A stretch of DNA of 64,000 bases from a virus. Taxonomy: Duplodnaviria; Caudoviricetes. The notes under the pieces were generated by a model. The model was not told the DNA's origin and did no database searches. It worked only from the letters and a program-made list of their open reading frames with translations. The position numbers and the translations under genes were made by a program. The DNA is taken from IMG/VR virus record IMGVR_UViG_3300030511_000001, positions 1-64,000 of that record, one strand, 5' to 3'. Shown piece by piece: positions 752 to 39,133 of the stretch (position 1 is its first letter; each line of letters opens with the position of its first letter).

Positions 752-776
752 CGCGAAGCCCTACCCCGGGGATGAG

Positions 777-808
777 GCGGCGCCGGCGAACCCGGCGCCG
801 TCTTTTTT
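777..808 (+). terminator. intrinsic terminator
   Basis: GGCGGCGCCGG/CCGGCGCCGTC stem followed by a T-run. Confidence 0.8.
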
Positions 809-809
809 C

Positions 810-837
810 TTGACGTTCATTCGTCGTGACGTAGAAT
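810..837 (+). promoter_or_regulatory. sigma70-type promoter carrying repeated motif TTCGNCGTGAYGTAGAAT
   Basis: TTGACG-16 nt-TAGAAT; motif recurs 6-8 times in the window. Confidence 0.75.
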
Positions 838-863: not shown

Positions 864-1901
864 ATGAGCATCGAAACGAGCATCGAATGGACGGTGCAGC
901 GGTTGCCGGATGGCCGGGTGGTCATCGGCTCCACGACGAACGGGTGGAGCGGTTGCACCAAGCACCTGCTGCCGAGCGGCAAAGTCGATCCGGAGTGCGT
1001 GCCGTGCTACGCCGAGCGTGAAGAAGACGCGCGCCGCGGCCGCTCGCAGTGGGGCAAGGGCAAGCCGCGCACGCAGTTCAAGACGTGGAAGAAGACGCTC
1101 GCGAAGCTGAACGAGGCCGCGAAGCGTCAGGGCGTCTATCCGTTCAACTTCATCTCGTCGCTCTCCGACTGGGCCGACCAGGACGCGATGGTCCCCGAAG
1201 CGTGGCGGGACGAGCTCGTCGACGCGGCGCTCGCCGCGGATCACATGACGCACCTGTTTCTCACGAAGCGCGCCGTCGAGGGTGCGGCGTACATGATGCG
1301 GCGTTTCCCGAATGGCCTTCCGCCGCACTTCTGGTTTGGCGTGAGCGCGGGCGAGCCCGAGGGACTGCGGTGGCGTCTCGAGGCCGCGCAGCGCGTGAAG
1401 GCCGACGTCCTGTTCATCAGCATGGAACCGCTCGCCGAGGACTGTGCCGAACACCTTGACGCGATGCTCCGCAGCGGCCTCCGTCTGGACTGGCTGCTGA
1501 CCGGCGGGCCGAGCGGGCCGTTCGACGACATGACGTATCCGAGCGGCAAGCGCGTCGTGGGTGCATGGCGATCCGTTGCGCACTCGTCGTGGTATGCAGG
1601 CGTCCTCGACGTGGCGGGCGCGTACGGCGTTCGCCGGCACCTGAAACAGTGGGGCAACTTCGCGCCGCTCGACCAGTCGCAGGCCGGCGTCATGCCGACG
1701 CGAGGCGTCCGCGTCTCGCGCGGCGGCGAGCGGGAGCTCGTGAAGGACGGCCTCGTCGCCCGTGACGTCTGGACCGACACCGACAGCAGCAACTGGGAGT
1801 TTCACGGCTTCCTCGGCGGATCGAACGGCAAGCACGCGCACGGCCGCATGCTGAACGGCGTCACCTACGACGAGCACCCCGCCGTGAGGTACGACGCATG
1901 A
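864..1901 (+). CDS. DUF5131 / phage Gp37-Gp68 family radical-SAM-like protein
   Basis: N-terminal SIEWT...GWSGC...ECVPCYA, LFLTKR, FGVS, FISMEPL, LDWLLTGG.SG, LKQWG, HGRMLNG.TYDEHP. Confidence 0.85.
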   Translation: MSIETSIEWTVQRLPDGRVVIGSTTNGWSGCTKHLLPSGKVDPECVPCYAEREEDARRGRSQWGKGKPRTQFKTWKKTLAKLNEAAKRQGVYPFNFISSLSDWADQDAMVPEAWRDELVDAALAADHMTHLFLTKRAVEGAAYMMRRFPNGLPPHFWFGVSAGEPEGLRWRLEAAQRVKADVLFISMEPLAEDCAEHLDAMLRSGLRLDWLLTGGPSGPFDDMTYPSGKRVVGAWRSVAHSSWYAGVLDVAGAYGVRRHLKQWGNFAPLDQSQAGVMPTRGVRVSRGGERELVKDGLVARDVWTDTDSSNWEFHGFLGGSNGKHAHGRMLNGVTYDEHPAVRYDA

Positions 1902-2122
1902 CCGAGATGCGCGTCTACCTCGCCGAGCCCGGCGAATCGCTGACCATCCACGTCGAGACGTTCGACGAAAACAACGTCCGCTATGAGTTCCCGATCGAGA
2001 TCACCGTGCAGCAGCAGGACAAGCCCCGCCTCGTCGGTGTGAAGGTCATGAACACGCCGGTGCTGTTGCGCGGTCTCGATTCGGTGTTCCACCTCGGCGG
2101 ACAGCAAGAGGCGGGCGACTGA
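1898..2122 (+). CDS. hypothetical protein
   Basis: 74 aa, ATGA overlap with upstream gene. Confidence 0.65.
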   Translation: MTEMRVYLAEPGESLTIHVETFDENNVRYEFPIEITVQQQDKPRLVGVKVMNTPVLLRGLDSVFHLGGQQEAGD

Positions 2123-2123
2123 C

Positions 2124-2990
2124 GTGGGCCGCCAACTCGTCACGCGGCCGCCGATGCGCTACTTCGGCGGGAAGTGGGTGATTGCGCCGTGGATCATCGG
2201 CAACCTGCCGGAGCACCGCGTCTATGTCGAGCCGTACGGCGGCGGAGCGTCGGTCCTGCTGCGCAAGCGCCGGTGCTATTCCGAGGTGTACAACGATCTC
2301 GACGGCGAGGTGGTGAACGTCTTCCGGGTGCTTCAGAATCCCGAGACGGCCGCGCAGCTCCGCGAGCTCCTGCACCTGACGCCGTTCGCTCGCGACGAGT
2401 TCCGGCTGTCCTTCAATGACGATGAGACCGTGAGCGACGTGGAGCGAGCGCGGCGCACGATCATGCTCTCGCTCATGGGGTTCGGTGCCGATGCGATGCT
2501 GCGCCTCTCGACGGGCTTCCGCGCTGTATCGAACCGCTCCGGCACGACGCCGGCGCACGACTGGGCGAACTATCCAGATTGCATCCCGGCCTTCGTCGAG
2601 CGGCTGCGCGGCGTTGTGATTGAGAACCGCGACGCGCTCGAGATCATCGCGCAGCACGACAGCCCGTCGACGCTGTTCTACGTCGATCCGCCCTACGTGC
2701 ACGACACGCGATCGCGGAAGACGAACCGCAAGAGCGGACGACTAAAGGCGCACGGCTACCGTCACGAGATGACGGACGACGAGCACCGCGCTCTCGCCGC
2801 CACGCTTCACCAAGTCAGCGGCCGCGTGGCGATCAGCGGCTACCACTCGCCGCTCTACGACGAACTGTATGGCGATTGGCAGAGCGTCGAGAAGCCGACG
2901 CACGCCGATGGCGCACGCGATCGTCTTGAGGTGCTGTGGCTCTCGCCGCGTGCCGTGGTGCAGCAGAAGCTGCTGGCGGTGAATCAGTGA
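2124..2990 (+). CDS. dam: DNA adenine methyltransferase (Dam / D12 class)
   Basis: YFGGKW, YVEPYGGGASV, EVYNDLD, IENRDAL, FYVDPPY. Confidence 0.92.
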   Translation: MGRQLVTRPPMRYFGGKWVIAPWIIGNLPEHRVYVEPYGGGASVLLRKRRCYSEVYNDLDGEVVNVFRVLQNPETAAQLRELLHLTPFARDEFRLSFNDDETVSDVERARRTIMLSLMGFGADAMLRLSTGFRAVSNRSGTTPAHDWANYPDCIPAFVERLRGVVIENRDALEIIAQHDSPSTLFYVDPPYVHDTRSRKTNRKSGRLKAHGYRHEMTDDEHRALAATLHQVSGRVAISGYHSPLYDELYGDWQSVEKPTHADGARDRLEVLWLSPRAVVQQKLLAVNQ

Positions 2991-3241
2991 CGAAGGACCG
3001 CACGCTGTTCTGCAACCGGAAGCCGGACGCCTATCCAGTCGGGGATCCGGCACCGTGTTCCTTCAAGCTCACGCTCGAAACGTACGGCATGAGCACGGCC
3101 ATCCGCGGGCGCTGCACCGTCCATGAGGGCGGGGAGCTCGTCATCCACACCCGCGTCACGATCGGCACGCAGCTCAAGCTGATCGGTGACGGCGCCATCG
3201 CCGTCGAGGAGACGCTGACGGTGGCCCGGAGGGAATCGTGA
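2987..3241 (+). CDS. hypothetical protein
   Basis: GTG overlapping the dam stop (MTKDRTLFC...). Confidence 0.6.
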   Translation: MTKDRTLFCNRKPDAYPVGDPAPCSFKLTLETYGMSTAIRGRCTVHEGGELVIHTRVTIGTQLKLIGDGAIAVEETLTVARRES

Positions 3242-4014
3242 CCGGAAATCAGCGGTGGCGCGAGGGCCGCGCCAGCTACCGGCCTGCCGCCGAGACGATC
3301 GTCACCGCCGAGTACTCGGTCGAGGCGCTTCCGGAGCTCGACGCGAAGTCGTTCGTGGTCGAGCACCACTACTCGAGCTCCTACCCGGCGGCGCGCGGGC
3401 GGTTCGGCCTGTTCCACCGCTCGCACCTCGTCGGCGTCGCGGTGCTCTCGCACCCGTGCAGCGATCGCGTCCTGACGAACGTTTTCCCGGGCGTCCCGAC
3501 GCTCGAAGCCGTGGAGCTCGGCCGGTTCGTTCTGCTCGACCGCGTGCCGGGCAACGGCGAGACCTGGTTTCTCGCGCGCGTCTTCCACGCGCTGCGCCGC
3601 GAGGGCTTCGCTGGCGTCGTGTCGTTTTCCGATCCGGTCGCGCGCACCTCGGCCGCCGGCGATGTCGTGTTCCCCGGTCACATCGGGACCATCTACCAGG
3701 CACACAACGCCGCCTATCTCGGGCTCTCGACGCCGCGATCGCTGCGCCTCCTGCCGAACGGAAAGGTGCTTTCCGACCGCGCGATTCAGAAGGTCCGCGG
3801 CGGGGAGCGCGGGTGGGGCCGTGTCGTCGAGTTGCTGTGCGAACACGGCGCGCCGCCCTTTGGCGGTGATCGGCGCGAGTGGCTTCAGCGCGCGCTGCAG
3901 GTGACGACACGCGTCCTCCGCCACGGCGGGAATCACCGGTACGCTTGGGGACTCACGCCGAGCACGCGGCGGCAGCTCGAGGGCGGGCCGTACCCGAAGA
4001 AGGTGGCGGCGTGA
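3238..4014 (+). CDS. Mom-like (GNAT-fold) DNA modification protein
   Basis: FVVEHHYS, LVGVAV, VELGRFVL.D, GETWFLAR, VVSFSDP, GHIGTIYQA.N..YLG resemble Mu Mom homologs. Confidence 0.75.
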   Translation: MTGNQRWREGRASYRPAAETIVTAEYSVEALPELDAKSFVVEHHYSSSYPAARGRFGLFHRSHLVGVAVLSHPCSDRVLTNVFPGVPTLEAVELGRFVLLDRVPGNGETWFLARVFHALRREGFAGVVSFSDPVARTSAAGDVVFPGHIGTIYQAHNAAYLGLSTPRSLRLLPNGKVLSDRAIQKVRGGERGWGRVVELLCEHGAPPFGGDRREWLQRALQVTTRVLRHGGNHRYAWGLTPSTRRQLEGGPYPKKVAA

Positions 4015-4184
4015 AGCGCATCAGCGTCGTTCCGCATTGGCACGTCGGGAGCCCGTACGTCGACGCGCCGTTTAGCATCGCGATCAACGCGCATCGGTGG
4101 GCGCTCGGCCTCGTCGTGCACACGTGGGGGCTGCGGGTGCTTTTCTTCGCATGGCACCTCTGCATCCACTGGGGGCGTCGGTGA
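4011..4184 (+). CDS. small hydrophobic hypothetical protein
   Basis: 57 aa, overlapping start/stop on both sides. Confidence 0.55.
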   Translation: MKRISVVPHWHVGSPYVDAPFSIAINAHRWALGLVVHTWGLRVLFFAWHLCIHWGRR

Positions 4185-4909
4185 TGTTCTTCGTCGGCCT
4201 CCATCAGCCGAGCGACGCGCGGCACTTCGATCGAGCGTTCGTGAGCGTGAACCGTCTGCGCGGCCGCCGCTCCGATTTCGAGGTGCACGAGTGGATCATG
4301 GACTCGGGCGCCTTCACGGAGATCGCTACGCATGGCCGCTACCGCGCGAGCGTCGACGAGTACGCGGCGCAGGTCCGCCGCTGGCGCACGTGCGGCAGCA
4401 TGCGCGCGGCAGTCGCGCAGGACTGGATGTGCGAGCCGTGGATCGTGAAGAAAACCGGCCTGACGGTGGCCGAGCACCAGCGCCTCACGGTCGAGCGGTT
4501 CGACGCGCTGCGCGACCTCGTCGCCGGCGACGCGTACATCCTGCCGGTGCTTCAGGGCTACACCGTCGCCGACTATCTTCGCCACGTTGACGCGTACGGT
4601 GGCCGCCTGGCACCGGGGCAATGGGTGGGCGTCGGCAGCGTGTGCAAGCGGAACGCGAATGTCCGCGAGGTGGAAGCGATCCTCGCAGCGATCCGCAAAG
4701 CGCGTCCGGACCTTCGTCTACACGGCTTCGGATTGAAGATCACCGCATTACAGAGCGCCATTGTGCGCGACGCGCTCTACAGCGCCGACTCAATGGCGTG
4801 GAGCTACAACGCCCGCAAACACGGCCGCAATGCGAACGACTGGCGCGAGGCCGCGCGCTTCGCTGAACGCATTGAGCGGATGCCCGCACAGCAGTCGATT
4901 TTCCATTGA
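4184..4909 (+). CDS. TGT-fold / DpdA-like base-exchange protein
   Basis: WIMDSGAF, QDWMCEP, LPVLQG, VGVGSVC, LHGFG, SADSMAW typical of tRNA-guanine-transglycosylase-like TIM barrels. Confidence 0.7.
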   Translation: MFFVGLHQPSDARHFDRAFVSVNRLRGRRSDFEVHEWIMDSGAFTEIATHGRYRASVDEYAAQVRRWRTCGSMRAAVAQDWMCEPWIVKKTGLTVAEHQRLTVERFDALRDLVAGDAYILPVLQGYTVADYLRHVDAYGGRLAPGQWVGVGSVCKRNANVREVEAILAAIRKARPDLRLHGFGLKITALQSAIVRDALYSADSMAWSYNARKHGRNANDWREAARFAERIERMPAQQSIFH

Positions 4910-4938
4910 GCAGGAGGAATAAAATCATTGACATCTTA

Positions 4939-4951
4939 CCCCCCCCCCCCC
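4939..4951 (+). repeat. poly-C13 homopolymer tract at 5' end of methyltransferase gene
   Basis: 13 consecutive C, between TTGACA (4928-4933) and TACACT (4955-4960). Confidence 0.95.
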
Positions 4952-4985
4952 TCCTACACTGCGCCCGTACTATGACGACGGCACG

Positions 4986-5771
4986 GTGCAGATTTTCCAC
5001 GGAGACTGCCGCGAGGTGATACCGCAACTCGCCGCGCAGTCGATCGACCTGTTGCTGACCGACCCGCCGTACGGGCAGCAGTTCCAAGGTCAGGCGCTCA
5101 TCACCGCGAAGGCGAACATTCGCGCGGATGGAGCGCGGCAGGGCATGCGCCTTGTGCGGCAGATGCTGTTCGCGATCGTCGAGGAAGGCCGCGTGATGAA
5201 GCCAGACGCGCACGCCTATCTCTTCTGCCACTGGGAGTCCTGGCCGGACTTCTACGACGCGGCGAGCAGCTACATGAAGATCCAGAACGCGCTCGTTTGG
5301 TTCAAGAATCGCGGCGGCAGCGGCGACACCGAGTACGAGTACGCGCGCGACTATGAGGTGATCCTCTACGGGCTCACGGGCCGCGGCAGGCCGCTCGCCG
5401 GCCGACGCGATGGAGCTGTCATCGCCGGCATCCCGCCCGTCCTCGGTGACCGGCTCCACCCCACCGAAAAGCCCGAGAAACTGTTCCGCTATCTGATCGA
5501 GAAGTCGTGTCCCGTGGGCGGCGTCGTGCTCGACCCGTTCGGCGGAGCGATGCCCGCAGCTCGCGCGGCGAAGGCGTGCGGCCGCCGGGCCGTCGTGATC
5601 GAGATCGAGGAGCGGTATTGCGAGATCGGCGCGGAGCTCATGCGCCAAACGCCCCTGTTCGTGCCGGCGCCGGTTGCGCCGCCGGCGGTGCAGATGGAGG
5701 GCGGGCTGTTCGGCGGGATGCCCGAGCTGCAGCCCGAAGTGACCGACGAGGAGGAGGCGATCGCCGAATGA
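4986..5771 (+). CDS. DNA methyltransferase, N4/N6 family (true start probably upstream of or across the C tract)
   Basis: PYYDDGTVQIFHGDCRE, LLTDPPYG, HPTEKP, VLDPFGG, IEIEERYCE. Confidence 0.9.
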   Translation: MQIFHGDCREVIPQLAAQSIDLLLTDPPYGQQFQGQALITAKANIRADGARQGMRLVRQMLFAIVEEGRVMKPDAHAYLFCHWESWPDFYDAASSYMKIQNALVWFKNRGGSGDTEYEYARDYEVILYGLTGRGRPLAGRRDGAVIAGIPPVLGDRLHPTEKPEKLFRYLIEKSCPVGGVVLDPFGGAMPAARAAKACGRRAVVIEIEERYCEIGAELMRQTPLFVPAPVAPPAVQMEGGLFGGMPELQPEVTDEEEAIAE

Positions 5772-11172: not shown

Positions 11173-12750
11173 ATGGAAGTCATCTCCCGCGACGCTGTCG
11201 CCGGCCTGCTCGAGAAGTGGTATCACGACCCGGTCGCGTTCTGTCACGACGTCTTTCCCCGCGAGGAATGGCCGCGGCCGCAGCAGTGCGAGATCCTTGA
11301 CGCGATTTGGCGCAACCCGGCCACGGTCGTCGCGGCGCACCGTGGTTGGGGCAAGTCGCGAACGGAGGCGTTCGCCGCGCTCGCCTTCATTTGCACGCGT
11401 GCGAATTCGCTCGTCTTCACGATCGCGCCGCGTTGGGACCAGGTCACGCAGGGCGTGTGGGTAGACATCCGCCACCTGTGGGCCGTTTCCAAGCTGCCGA
11501 AGATTTTCCCGAGCTGGCGCGTCCTCACGCACGAGATTCAGACGCACCCGCTCACCCCGAAGTGGCGAGCGGTCGGCGTCGCCGCCTCCGAAGTCCAGAA
11601 CATCGAAGGCAAGCACCCCGCAGCCGGTCGTCCCGCGCTCGTCCTGGGCGACGAGTGCAAGGCGATCCCTGACGAGTTCCGCGAGTCGGTGAAGGGCATG
11701 CTGAAGCACCCCGAGAGCCGCTTCGTCGGCATCGGTACGCCTGGCATCCCGTTCGGCTGGTTTTACGAAGCGTTCACCACGCGGCGGCGCGGCTACAAAA
11801 CGTTCCAGTTCCGCGGCGACACCTCGCCGGATCCCGAGGTGCGCGCGCATGTGCAGAAGATCGGCGATGACGCCGGATGGGACGATCCGTTCTTCCGGCA
11901 GCAGTGGCTCGCCGAGTTCACGGGTGCCGACGAGGGCGTCATCATCCCGCTCAAGATCGTCACGCCGGCCATCCGCCGGCGCCTCGAGTTCTCCCCGGTC
12001 TGGCGCAAGGTGATGAGCGTCGACCCCGCCGGCAAGGGCTCGGATCACACCGTCGTCACCTACCGCCTCGGCCCGGTCACGATCAAACAAAAGGCATGGC
12101 AGGGGTGGGACATCATCAAGAGCGAGCGCGAGGTGATCGCGCTGATTCTCGAGTGGAAGCCCGAGCGCGTCATCATCGACGAGGGGGGCCTCGGCGAAGG
12201 CGTCGTGTCGCACGTGCGCGACGCGCTGAAGGACACCGACATCGAAATCGTCGGCTACCGCGGCGGCGCGAAGCCGCACGACAAAGAGCGGTATGAGAAC
12301 CGGAAGGCCGAGGACGTGCACGCGCTGCGCGAGCGGTACAAGGAAGGCGCGGAGTTCGTCGAGAAGGTGCATGCCGAGCTGCGCGGCCGCCTCTTGCAGC
12401 TCAACCCGAGCCCCGAGGCCGTCACCAGGACGTTCGACTACCTGCACCGCCTCACCTACGGCAGCTTCACGCCCGAGCAGATCGCCGCAGTGCGGCCCGG
12501 CTCGCCCGAGGCCGCGGCGCTCGCCGACGAGATCGCGGCGAAGCTGCGCAAAGGCCCGGGCATCTCGATTCCGAACGAGCCGAACCTCATCGGGCAGACG
12601 TGTTCGTGGACGGCCGACCGGTCGAAGGCGAATCGCACGATGGTCATTGATCCGGACGACTCGCCCGACTACGCGGACAGCGACATGATGGCGTATGCGG
12701 CGGACACGTTCGGCAGCTCGCTCAAAGGAACGACGATTAGCGTGGTGTAG
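11173..12750 (+). CDS. terL: terminase large subunit
   Basis: Walker A AAHRGWGKS, Walker B LVLGDE, IGTPG, nuclease VDPAGKGSD, C-terminal SPDYAD. Confidence 0.92.
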   Translation: MEVISRDAVAGLLEKWYHDPVAFCHDVFPREEWPRPQQCEILDAIWRNPATVVAAHRGWGKSRTEAFAALAFICTRANSLVFTIAPRWDQVTQGVWVDIRHLWAVSKLPKIFPSWRVLTHEIQTHPLTPKWRAVGVAASEVQNIEGKHPAAGRPALVLGDECKAIPDEFRESVKGMLKHPESRFVGIGTPGIPFGWFYEAFTTRRRGYKTFQFRGDTSPDPEVRAHVQKIGDDAGWDDPFFRQQWLAEFTGADEGVIIPLKIVTPAIRRRLEFSPVWRKVMSVDPAGKGSDHTVVTYRLGPVTIKQKAWQGWDIIKSEREVIALILEWKPERVIIDEGGLGEGVVSHVRDALKDTDIEIVGYRGGAKPHDKERYENRKAEDVHALRERYKEGAEFVEKVHAELRGRLLQLNPSPEAVTRTFDYLHRLTYGSFTPEQIAAVRPGSPEAAALADEIAAKLRKGPGISIPNEPNLIGQTCSWTADRSKANRTMVIDPDDSPDYADSDMMAYAADTFGSSLKGTTISVV

Positions 12751-14138: not shown

Positions 14139-15944
14139 ATGACGCTTTCCGCCGGTCTATCCGCTGGCACCAACACCGTCACGTTCGCCGATAACGTCAC
14201 GCCCACCGTCGTCATGAACGACGCCATGGCCGACGTCGTGACGCTGTTCCGCGACTACGAAAACAACGGGGCCAATCCCGAATACAAGGCTTTCGAGGCG
14301 CGGATCAACTACGGCTCCTCGTTCTACCGCCGCTCCGCCGGCGCGAACGTGTGGGAGTTCATCAACGACGCCGTCGACGGCTCCGGCGGCTTCGCCAACG
14401 GTGCCTACCTCTTCCCCTTCAAGCTCGAGATGGAGGAGAGCGGGAAGCCGACGCTGAAGTATCTGAAGCGTCAGGAACAGGCCGACTACGACAACTTTGC
14501 CCACCACGTCTGCAACACGCCGTGGGACGTCATCGTCGGAAGCGCCGATCTGATCGAGCGGAAGGCGAAGGCCGGGACGCCCGCGGCGAAGCTGCTGGAC
14601 GAGTTCTGGCACAACGTCGATCTCCACGGCACGGCAATCCTCGACTTCCTCGAGTACCCCCACAAGCAAGCCCGCCGCTTCGGCACCGGCATCATCATCA
14701 TGGACCGCCCCTCGTTCGAAAACCGGAGCGAGGCGGACAACAAAAACCCGCAGAACCGGCCGTGGGTGTACGCGGTCCCCACGCAGAACGTCGTGCACTG
14801 GGAGTTCGGCGAGGACGGCGAGCTCGCTGGCATCGTCGTCCTAGTGCCGCAACTCATCGACCTCGGCGACGGCAAGGGCCGCCAGAACGTGACGGATGTC
14901 CGCGTCTGGACACGCAGTCAGTGGGCGGTGTTCCGCCGCACGAGCGATACGCGCCACGACGGCACCACGGGTGTGCAGGAGAGCCCGGGCGAGACCTTTG
15001 AGCTGATCGACTCCGGCGACCACAAGCTCGGCGAGGTGCCAGTCGTCGCGATCTACAACGACACGCCGGAGCCCGGGCACCTGCTCGCGCATACCGAAAT
15101 GCTCGACGTCGCGCGCATCGCGCAGACGGTCTACAACATCGACAGCGAGGCGCGCGAGATCGAGCGCAAGTGTGCCCTCTTCCTCGCGATCCCGGTGAAG
15201 AACACCGATTCGTTCAGCGAGAAGAAGGCGATCATCTCCACGGAGAACGCCCTGCTGTTCGACGGCGAGGCCGGCGCGCCGCAGTGGATTTCGCCGGACC
15301 TCGGCATCCTCGAAAACCTCACGACGCGCCGCGAGGCGAAGAAGCTCGACGCCTACAAGATGGCCGGCCTCGGCGCGATCGCGGCGACGACCGACACCGT
15401 ATCGACGGCCAGCGGCTACCACGCCGAGGTGGAGTTCCAGAAGACGGAGCGCCGCATCGCTCGCCACGCTTCGATGCTCGAGGCGGCCGAGAAGCGCCTG
15501 GCACGCCTCTACCTGAAGTTCTACGGGATCGACTCCGACCAGGAGGCCGACCTGTTCTCCATCACGTACCCGCGCGACTACGGCGTCCGCGACATGGAAG
15601 CCCTCGTGCTCCGGACAAAGGAAATCCTCGGCCTGAACCTCGGCGAGAAGTGGGACCAGCGCACGCTCGAGAAGCTGGCGAAGGCGCAGTTCCCGCGCAT
15701 GAGCGACGAGGAGATCGCCGAGATGGTGGAGGACGCCGTCACCGAGCGCAGCGCGGCGAAGAAACAGCAGCAGGAGCTCGAGCGCGTCAAGAGCATGGCC
15801 GCCGTTCTCACGCGGCCCCAGCCTGGCCCCGGCGCCGCAGCCGAGGGCAAGGGCCCGCAACCGAAGCCCGGCCAGAAGGCTCCGCCGGCGAAGGCGGAGA
15901 AGCCCGACCCGAAGAAGCCCGAAAAGAAGAAGGTGGCGGCCTAA
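14139..15944 (+). CDS. portal protein
   Basis: ~600 aa after terL; VVHWEF, LGEVPVVAIY, VYNIDSE, QWISPD, SGYHAE; Pro/Lys-rich tail; start uncertain. Confidence 0.8.
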   Translation: MTLSAGLSAGTNTVTFADNVTPTVVMNDAMADVVTLFRDYENNGANPEYKAFEARINYGSSFYRRSAGANVWEFINDAVDGSGGFANGAYLFPFKLEMEESGKPTLKYLKRQEQADYDNFAHHVCNTPWDVIVGSADLIERKAKAGTPAAKLLDEFWHNVDLHGTAILDFLEYPHKQARRFGTGIIIMDRPSFENRSEADNKNPQNRPWVYAVPTQNVVHWEFGEDGELAGIVVLVPQLIDLGDGKGRQNVTDVRVWTRSQWAVFRRTSDTRHDGTTGVQESPGETFELIDSGDHKLGEVPVVAIYNDTPEPGHLLAHTEMLDVARIAQTVYNIDSEAREIERKCALFLAIPVKNTDSFSEKKAIISTENALLFDGEAGAPQWISPDLGILENLTTRREAKKLDAYKMAGLGAIAATTDTVSTASGYHAEVEFQKTERRIARHASMLEAAEKRLARLYLKFYGIDSDQEADLFSITYPRDYGVRDMEALVLRTKEILGLNLGEKWDQRTLEKLAKAQFPRMSDEEIAEMVEDAVTERSAAKKQQQELERVKSMAAVLTRPQPGPGAAAEGKGPQPKPGQKAPPAKAEKPDPKKPEKKKVAA

Positions 15945-37906: not shown

Positions 37907-39133
37907 ATGGCTAACCAGTTCGACAAAATCGCGAGCGATATCACCTTCTTCGGTACGCTCGTCCTCGCGCAGCTCCGTCAGCAGCTCGCGCTCGTCAATC
38001 GCGTCAACACCGACTACAAGGGCGCTTCCTCGGCGGCCGGTCGGAAGATCAGCATCCCCGTGGTCGAGATGTCCGGCAGCGCGCAGACGCGCGGCATCGG
38101 CGGCGGCGTCACCCGCAACAGCGGTAAGGCGACGGCCGTCGAGGTGGTGATGCAGCAGATCACCTACTCGTGGGAGCTCGACAACCTCGAGGAGACGTTC
38201 TCCAACGTCAACACCGTCCTCGAGATGGCGCAGCGCGCCGCGATCAAGATGGCGGACGGCGTCGACGCGCTGCTCACCGGCCTCTGGCCGCTGATCCCGT
38301 ATCGCGTCGGCCCGCTCGACGGCTCGGGTCTCTTCAACCCGACCGACAAGGTGAAGGCGTTCGCTCAGGCCCGCAAGGCCCTGAAGGACAACCTCGCCCC
38401 GACCGACCGTCTGTTCATGATCCTCGGCACCACCGAGGAGCTGAACCTCACCACGCTCGACATCTACACCCAGGCGCAGCAGTCGGGCGATCCGACGCAG
38501 CTTCGCACGGGTGCACTCAAGCCGATCATGGGCGTGCAGCCGTACGCCTCGCAGGCCGTGCCGACGAACATCACGTTCACGCCGGCCGACAACACCGGCT
38601 GGAACACCCCGACCACCTCGGGCGTGAACGCCATCGGCGCGACGACGCTGAACGTGGCCGGTCTCGCCAATGGCGCGACCATCACCAAGGGCAGCATCTT
38701 CACCATCGCCGGCGGCGGCACCATGCCGAACGGTCAGCCGCAGCCGTATTCGGTCACGGCCGACGTCGTCGCCAGCGGCGGCGGCGCCGCGGCGCTTCCG
38801 ATCTCGCCCGCGCTGAAGGCGGCGCCGGCGAACGGTGCGACGATCACGCCGGTGGCCTACACCGGCACCCACTCCATCAACCTCATCGCGGACCCGAGCG
38901 CGTATCTGTTCGTCGTTCGTCCGCAGGCCGCGGTTCCTCCGGGCGCCGGCGTCCTGCAGATGGACTTCACCGACCCCGTGTCGCAGCTCACCTTCCGTCT
39001 GTCGATCGAGGCGAACATCGCCCGCGACAACGCTGCGGGCCGCGCGTACACCACCGTGTGGACGCTCGACCTGCTCGCCGGCGCGAACATCGTTCGTCCG
39101 GAGCTGGCGGTGCGCGCCGAGGGCGAGGCGTAG
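37907..39133 (+). CDS. major capsid protein (P22 coat-like, with beta-sandwich insertion)
   Basis: MAN...LVNRVNTDY..., ELDN, LAP...R; insertion GATTLNV...ITKGSIFTIAG...ALPISPAL. Confidence 0.85.
   Translation: MANQFDKIASDITFFGTLVLAQLRQQLALVNRVNTDYKGASSAAGRKISIPVVEMSGSAQTRGIGGGVTRNSGKATAVEVVMQQITYSWELDNLEETFSNVNTVLEMAQRAAIKMADGVDALLTGLWPLIPYRVGPLDGSGLFNPTDKVKAFAQARKALKDNLAPTDRLFMILGTTEELNLTTLDIYTQAQQSGDPTQLRTGALKPIMGVQPYASQAVPTNITFTPADNTGWNTPTTSGVNAIGATTLNVAGLANGATITKGSIFTIAGGGTMPNGQPQPYSVTADVVASGGGAAALPISPALKAAPANGATITPVAYTGTHSINLIADPSAYLFVVRPQAAVPPGAGVLQMDFTDPVSQLTFRLSIEANIARDNAAGRAYTTVWTLDLLAGANIVRPELAVRAEGEA

Follow-up and report, generated by a model that had tools for sequence, protein, structure and literature searches.

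The stretch of DNA considered here (the window) is made up of positions 1-64000 of a virus record that is 81,633 bp long and has a GC content of 67% (IMG/VR record IMGVR_UViG_3300030511_000001; Duplodnaviria, Caudoviricetes), and it carries, on the plus strand at positions 864-5771, an operon of DNA modification genes. In order, its five enzyme genes encode a three-cysteine DUF5131 (Gp37/Gp68) protein with a probable radical S-adenosylmethionine (SAM) fold (345 residues, 864-1901), a D12-class (Dam-type) N6-adenine DNA methyltransferase (288 residues, 2124-2990), a Mom-family GNAT enzyme (258 residues, 3238-4014), a DpdA-type DNA guanine transglycosylase of a zinc-less clade (241 residues, 4184-4909), and a beta-class N6/N4 DNA methyltransferase (4986-5771) that has 261 residues when counted from the GTG at 4986 and whose native N-terminus lies upstream. 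The original prediction for this DNA had assigned the genes to these five families, and the assignments hold, since all five proteins score above the Pfam cut-offs, fall into concordant PHROG families and keep their catalytic motifs.

The operon is preceded by a strong intrinsic terminator of the upstream transcription unit (774-804, plus strand), in which a run of T comes after a 13-bp stem containing 10 GC pairs, and by a predicted σ70-like promoter (TTGACG-16-TAGAAT, 810-837, plus strand) that agrees with the consensus at 10 of 12 positions and lies 27 nt before the first start codon. Among the enzyme genes lie three small open reading frames (ORFs) of no family, none of which had a match in Pfam, PHROG or NCBIfam: one of 74 residues (1898-2122), whose ATGA overlaps the stop codon of the DUF5131 gene, one of 84 residues directly before the Mom gene (2987-3241), with GTGA overlaps at both of its ends, and a hydrophobic, Trp/His-rich one of 57 residues (4011-4184). 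The GC content at third codon positions is 0.84-0.88 in all operon genes, and the values of the small ORFs (0.88, 0.88 and 0.86, respectively) are of this coding type. The 84-residue ORF was considered as a possible Com-like zinc finger and rejected, as its three Cys residues are scattered and no counterpart was found beside the relatives of Mom. Coupling of the genes by overlapping codons (ATGA at 1898, GTGA at 2987, 3238 and 4011, and TGATG at 4184) supports the earlier description of this locus as one tightly coupled operon as far as the overlapping genes are concerned; the exception is the last methyltransferase gene, which is separated from the DpdA gene by a 76-nt gap and, as assembled, is out of frame with both usable start codons. 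This gap contains the leader of the last gene (4912-4951, plus strand), with a good ribosome-binding site (AGGAGG at 4912-4917), a TTG codon at 4928 and a tract of 13 C residues (C13) at 4939-4951.

The product of 4184-4909 matched the DpdA family PF23859 with 155.3 bits (cut-off 27; E 2.2e-45; profile positions 5-224 of 291), a result repeated in a scan of the whole genome, and also matched phrog_1279 (2.5e-70). Its AlphaFold model (predicted local distance difference test score, pLDDT, of 94) is a complete eight-stranded barrel for which Foldseek ranked the DpdA structure 7UI4 first (E 1.5e-7, probability 1.00, template modelling score 0.60 by query), followed by tRNA guanine transglycosylases (TGTs) from all domains of life and a Cap10 protein of a cyclic oligonucleotide-based antiphage signalling system (CBASS), so that the TGT/DpdA fold proposed for this gene is confirmed. 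In an alignment of 23 sequences, reaching down to 41% identity, residues D40 (as D-x3-F44), D80, H180-G181 and D202 are invariant, as is a Gly-rich loop. The corresponding residues described for bacterial DpdA are D95, D130, D256 and H181-G182 (PMC10164549), and the order of the motifs, rather than a superposition, suggests that D40, D80, H180-G181 and D202 act as the general acid/base, the base-recognition Asp, the His-Gly pair and the nucleophile, respectively. Among the sequences of the Protein Data Bank, a DpdA profile found no match and single-sequence phmmer searches with DpdA, Mom and DUF5131 returned nothing relevant; an hhalign comparison of the DpdA alignment with the single sequence of E. 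coli Tgt was uninformative (probability 0.7%).

A Cys-rich zinc motif is absent from this protein: no Cys follows D202, and the segment GRNANDWREA stands in its place, as it does in about twenty closer relatives. Actinobacterial phages and prophages encode relatives of 40-47% identity in which a Cys cluster still follows the nucleophile. An exhaustive search yielded 1969 representative clusters, and the Cys cluster was missing in 77 of the 87 top representatives that could be scored. Because the zinc site is lost across the clade, the protein is best filed, from its sequence, as a member of a zinc-less DpdA-like clade and not as a canonical DpdA; this clade is large and so far uncharacterised. 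Sinorhizobium, Rhizobium and Microcystis are the hosts of those members that are in culture, and the DpdA relatives point to Rhizobiales, cyanobacterial, planctomycete and verrucomicrobial hosts. In addition, a contig from a Planctomycetaceae metagenome-assembled genome (CAYLTY010000026.1) carries, within 5 kb, genes for DUF5131, for a D12 methyltransferase and for a DpdA that is zinc-less and 61% identical; as the identity to the genes described here is low throughout, this cluster was put together independently from parts of like kind.

The original prediction had also stated that no preQ0 synthesis genes are visible in the window, and this absence extends to the whole closed genome, in which no match was found to QueC, PTPS/QueD, FolE (GTP cyclohydrolase I), the radical-SAM family (QueE) or the YhhQ transporter. 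When the called ORFs were scanned with Pfam and PHROG, which did not include a search aimed at QueF, no QueF or preQ1-forming gene appeared. The database labels on the record (linear, 79% complete according to CheckV) would leave room for preQ0 genes in an unassembled fifth of the genome, an explanation that was rejected when the contig was found to close. Bases 1-253 recur at 81381-81633 with one mismatch, forming a 253-bp direct terminal repeat, and gene order over this junction agrees with that of a sister phage described below, so the assembly closes into an 81,380-bp genome. In the closed genome, a 282-residue gene starts at genome position 81025 and has the ORF at 17-493 as its tail. The phage thus has a complete, tailed-phage genome of ~81.4 kb.

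Lack of precursor genes is typical of the clade: a related DpdA is encoded in 34 viral records, 14 of them with a completeness of 90% or more, and QueC was found in none of these. Among five bacterial genomes with a related DpdA, three have a clear QueC elsewhere and the other two have weak QueC-like matches only. Phages with DpdA but without precursor genes were described in 2019 as the largest group and were proposed to use host preQ0 (PMC6884629). The DpdA-only phages 7-11 (PMC6884629) and MED16 (PMC8306585) carry 2′-deoxy-7-amido-7-deazaguanosine (dADG), and phage DpdA enzymes produced alone in E. coli insert host-made preQ0 (PMC10516641). By analogy with these phages, the zinc-less DpdA would most likely use host preQ0.

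The Mom protein matched PF25680 along essentially the entire profile (positions 2-202 of 202; 89.9 bits, cut-off 27.1, E 2.2e-25) as well as phrog_1384 (5.9e-27), and a 15-sequence Mom profile found phage Mu Mom (8BV8) at 5.7e-8. In this alignment, Mu residues H58, Y59, R111, D149, R151 and Y159 correspond to H44, Y45, R96, D132, R136 and Y153, all of which are invariant in 15 clade members, so the match of 3238-4014 to Mom/GNAT that had been anticipated was obtained with the key residues kept. Mu S124 aligns with T109, which is also invariant in the clade and retains the hydroxyl. The segment around residues 170-225 has a length that suits a helix-turn-helix (HTH)-like insertion and contains invariant R181, K185 and W193, in a region where the alignment to 8BV8 is broken; in Mu Mom, the HTH-like insertion (175-209) is needed for activity (PMC13219725).

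The first protein of the operon matched PF07505 with 111.4 bits (cut-off 28.9; 6.6e-32) and also phrog_2045. Its cysteines C31, C45 and C48 are invariant in seven DUF5131 homologues, the spacing being Cx13CxxC in this protein and in that of the sister phage but Cx7CxxC elsewhere, and the radical-SAM profile PF04055 did not match it. The structural model has a mean pLDDT of 65 and gave weak Foldseek matches. In an exhaustive comparison the closest structure to this model was that of spore photoproduct lyase (4FHC; Z 12.8, rmsd 3.5, 221 aligned residues), and the next entries, at Z 10-11, were mostly radical-SAM enzymes mixed with generic and designed triosephosphate isomerase (TIM) barrels. This comparison agrees with RadicalSAM.org, which places DUF5131 beside spore photoproduct lyase (PMC9477430), and, within the limits of a model of this pLDDT, it bears out the earlier view of the protein as radical-SAM-like. 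DUF5131 also matched the PADLOC candidate defence components PDC-M41B and PDC-M30B, and among 50 viral records picked solely for the presence of DpdA or Mom it occurs in 10. In four other phages it has no consistent partner, being found once with a D12 methyltransferase and once with RecT, and no protein of the operon matched the NCBIfam model for TcmP (TIGR04474). It is conceivable, if rather doubtful, that DUF5131 is a DNA-acting radical-SAM enzyme akin to spore photoproduct lyase that adds a chemically new DNA modification, possibly together with the Dam-type enzyme; an action on DNA would explain its lead position in the operon, its pairing with Dam in the sister phage, and its recurrence in the records selected for DpdA or Mom.

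Of the two methyltransferases, the D12 enzyme matched PF02086 (65.5 bits, cut-off 22; 8e-18), phrog_56 (7e-63) and PADLOC MTase_II (1.2e-52), and contains a DPPY motif at 188 and a SAM-binding YGGG at 38-41. Its score against the E. coli Dam equivalog TIGR00571, which stands for GATC specificity, was 56.7 bits and thus below the cut-off of 114.85. The beta-class enzyme matched PF01555 (79.4 bits, cut-off 26.7; 5e-22) and phrog_67 (4.4e-47), and is placed in its class by a DPPY motif at 26 that precedes DPFGG at 183. Relatives of this last methyltransferase begin with M-x-P-Y-Y, a motif that is encoded here upstream of GTG 4986 and is conserved in the sister phage; therefore, the native start lies before the C tract. 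A start at TTG 4928 would read into the methyltransferase frame only if the tract had 12 or 15 C residues, and one at TTG 4906 only if it had 14, so that C13 alone is out of frame with both. The contig of the sister phage breaks exactly within the same tract, which could, from its sequence, be either a phase-variable switch or a homopolymer assembly error. When an 18-mer of the conserved leader was used to look for further sisters, it recovered one sister only, plus four chance matches.

Comparison with related phages separates the histories of these genes. Mom was above the cut-off in none of the 34 records of DpdA-bearing relatives, and DpdA was found in none of 17 records, comprising 16 Mom-bearing relatives (at 54-62% identity) and the sister phage, by a search validated on four known positives. 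Among relatives, the co-occurrence of Mom and DpdA is thus as unusual as the original prediction had proposed. Across 25 loci, DpdA has no conserved neighbour. The sister phage (IMGVR_UViG_3300005337_000019; an 82,990-bp contig) is the single relative of this kind, and it encodes, in the same order, DUF5131 (46% identity), Dam (82%), the 57-residue ORF (55%) and the last methyltransferase (93%). There, the 57-residue ORF has the same place after Dam, just before a variable slot, and the 74-residue ORF, the 84-residue ORF, Mom and DpdA are all missing. The slot taken up here by DpdA contains a 174-residue gene in the sister phage (L056:16438-16962), which had no Pfam match and a faint Mom-like signal (phrog_1384, 6e-4), and which may be another DNA modification cassette. 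The operon therefore has a mosaic history: from their separate distributions, and from a sister-phage backbone that is without either of them, Mom and DpdA are exchangeable cassettes dropped into a conserved backbone. These same observations, namely a distribution of its own for each gene, no conserved neighbour of DpdA, and a sister backbone lacking both Mom and DpdA, lend no support to the notion that the five enzymes form a single functional unit.

Downstream of the operon come the packaging genes, including those for the large terminase (11173-12750) and the portal (14139-15944), and the genes between the operon and the terminase had no match in Pfam, PHROG or NCBIfam. The major head protein is encoded at 37907-39133, and the genome contains one tRNA gene, for tRNA-Tyr. 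Outside the window, at genome positions 71276-74368, is a gene for a C5-cytosine methyltransferase of 1030 residues, whose conserved motifs (146-264, 376-426 and 973-1020) are split by a variable region of ~520 residues; this arrangement suggests an enzyme with several target-recognition domains, multispecific like its phage counterparts. Upstream of it is a gene for a 502-residue protein with a Mgm101/Rad52-like single-strand annealing domain (genome 69512-71020; PF06420, 7.3e-18). In two other phages, homologues of the C5 methyltransferase are found directly upstream of Mom.

Over the whole genome, the hexamer palindromes AGCGCT (0 observed, 34 expected), AGGCCT (0 and 22), CAGCTG (0 and 26), TGATCA (0 and 16), TGGCCA (1 and 20) and AGATCT (1 and 8) are absent or nearly so, and the scarcity of these six sites indicates restriction pressure. 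The tetramer CTAG is also low genome-wide (10 observed, 50 expected); GATC is not avoided, with 672 sites and an observed/expected ratio of 1.01.

Taken together, these observations make it probable that the operon, positioned just upstream of the packaging genes, is an island that was put together by cassette exchange and whose anti-restriction enzymes are co-transcribed yet independent of one another. The original prediction had left a choice between layered anti-restriction and a new base modification; the former is favoured, as a cassette history fits independent layers of protection better than a joint pathway, and no evidence of a new base was found. We infer the following for the modifications themselves, for the motifs that they target and for a role in protection. 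Each enzyme would act alone, on phage DNA that has been replicated but not yet packaged. The Dam-type enzyme would produce N6-methyladenine (m6A), and the beta-class enzyme would place m6A or N4-methylcytosine (m4C) at another motif, with its translation set by the length of the C tract. Mom would move glycine from host Gly-tRNA(Gly) onto adenine at N6, giving a product that rearranges to N6-carbamoylmethyl-adenine, according to the mechanism described for Mom (PMC13219725). The zinc-less DpdA would swap selected guanines for a host-made 7-deazaguanine, most likely preQ0, DUF5131 would be a radical-SAM-fold enzyme whose substrate is possibly DNA, and the separate C5-cytosine methyltransferase would add a further layer.

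Several facts weigh against this proposal of stacked, independent protection. A structural zinc site, according to PMC10164549 a conserved feature of DpdA proteins, is missing here, and the DpdA-only Mycobacterium phage Orion contains no 7-deazaguanine (PMC6884629); in addition, the supply of preQ0 by the host is an assumption. Residue S124 is essential in Mu Mom (PMC13219725), and a Thr occupies the site in this enzyme. With the C13 tract as assembled, the reading frame of the last methyltransferase stops at 4973-4975 and both TTG starts are out of frame. Finally, methyltransferases encoded beside a terminase can serve packaging or regulation rather than protection.

Some of these points could be accommodated if the zinc-less DpdA inserted no 7-deazaguanine in this phage, being either idle, as in Orion, or devoted to another substrate or role. 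We regard this as unlikely. It would fit the unmodified DNA of that DpdA-only phage, the loss of the zinc site across the clade, a genome without precursor or transporter genes, and the two of five bacterial genomes with weak QueC-like matches only, but the His-Gly pair, all three aspartates and a Gly-rich loop are invariant in 23 sequences down to 41% identity. Moreover, the size of the clade, as judged from the zinc-less majority of scorable top representatives (77 of 87), argues for selection on activity, the barrel model is confident and complete, and dADG is present in two DpdA-only phages, MED16 and 7-11.

An assignment of the methyltransferases mainly to the biology of the phage itself, such as recognition of the packaging site or the timing of expression, is improbable. 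The placement of the operon directly upstream of terminase and portal is in keeping with such a role, the pac site of phage P1 requires Dam methylation (review PMC12707154), and GATC is present at its expected frequency; set against this, three methyltransferases plus Mom and DpdA go beyond any regulatory need, palindromes are strongly avoided in the genome, and the ~520-residue variable region of the C5 enzyme is typical of multispecific protective methyltransferases. It is slightly less probable still that the operon encodes one pathway that builds a new hypermodified base, in which, for example, DpdA would insert an aminomethyl-deazaguanine, the Mom-like GNAT enzyme would acylate it from a charged tRNA, and a methyltransferase or DUF5131 would tailor the product. 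Tight translational coupling in one operon, the rarity of Mom and DpdA together elsewhere, and the existence of phage methyl- and formyltransferases that tailor dPreQ1 (PMC10516641) could be read in this way. However, relatives of Mom occur in 16 records that lack DpdA and relatives of DpdA in 34 that lack Mom, neither gene is part of the backbone in the sister phage, the active-site residues of Mu Mom are kept save for the change of S124 to Thr, and the Pfam and PHROG scans of ORFs, which lacked a QueF-directed search, revealed no QueF or other preQ1-forming gene.

Phage DNA modifications decide which restriction and clustered regularly interspaced short palindromic repeats (CRISPR) systems a phage escapes, and they also supply enzymes for biotechnology. 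The operon provides a compact natural test bed, with three adenine-N6 chemistries, guanine exchange and an uncharacterised enzyme of probable radical-SAM fold in 5 kb of DNA that could be cloned as one piece. The locus raises the questions of whether a widespread clade of zinc-less, precursor-less DpdA proteins inserts host preQ0, and of what DUF5131 does. In addition, if the C tract does switch the last methyltransferase on and off, mixed populations would result in which some phages are able to escape modification-dependent nucleases.

Comparison with known systems helps to place the individual enzymes. The bacterial DpdA of the Dpd system of Salmonella Montevideo (7UI4, PMC10164549), which ranked first among the structural matches, has in common with the phage protein a TIM barrel, three catalytic or recognition aspartates and a His-Gly pair; it has 413 residues, four insertions and a CxCx2Cx22H zinc site and needs the DpdB ATPase, whereas the phage protein is a minimal barrel of 241 residues without zinc site and without DpdB. 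The closest DpdA of a cultured phage, gp25 of Sinorhizobium phage phiLM21 (NC_029046), is 58% identical, zinc-less and 274 residues long, and the region shown for that phage has no preQ0 genes and a CcrM-like methyltransferase, gp27, two genes downstream of gp25. Unlike the operon described here, phiLM21 has no homologue of Mom, Dam or DUF5131 within 6 kb on each side of its DpdA, and gp27 has no detectable relation to our last methyltransferase. With the ‘DpdA-only’ phages (group 3 of Hutinet et al.) this phage shares a DpdA encoded in a genome without FolE, QueD, QueE and QueC, but its DpdA is of a clade without the Cys-rich zinc site and is found in an operon with Mom, two methyltransferases and DUF5131.

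Similar relationships exist for the other members. Phage Mu Mom (8BV8, PMC13219725) belongs to one and the same Pfam family, with full-length coverage and conservation of H58, Y59, R111, D149, R151 and Y159, but similarity at the profile level is low (E 5.7e-8) and S124 is replaced by Thr; in contrast to the setting of the mom gene in Mu, there is no Com-like zinc-finger gene upstream, where an unrelated 84-residue ORF is found instead, and the gene lies in the middle of an operon, not at the end of the genome. The two-gene TcmP/DUF5131 module (TIGR04474 plus PF07505) resembles the start of this operon in having a three-cysteine DUF5131 beside a gene with a methyltransferase fold, yet here the neighbour is a D12 Dam-type enzyme, TcmP is absent, and the cysteine spacing is Cx13CxxC and not Cx7CxxC. 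As in the multispecific methyltransferases of Bacillus phages (reviewed in PMC12707154), several modifications would be stacked against many restriction systems, with the difference that five genes form a single coupled operon here and one of them would be gated by a homopolymer tract. In this way, the locus as a whole is an example of the known strategy of stacked DNA modifications and not a new system; what is new is the clade of zinc-less DpdA proteins, the architecture of cassettes, a homopolymer tract that may act as a gate, and a lead on DUF5131 at the level of its fold.

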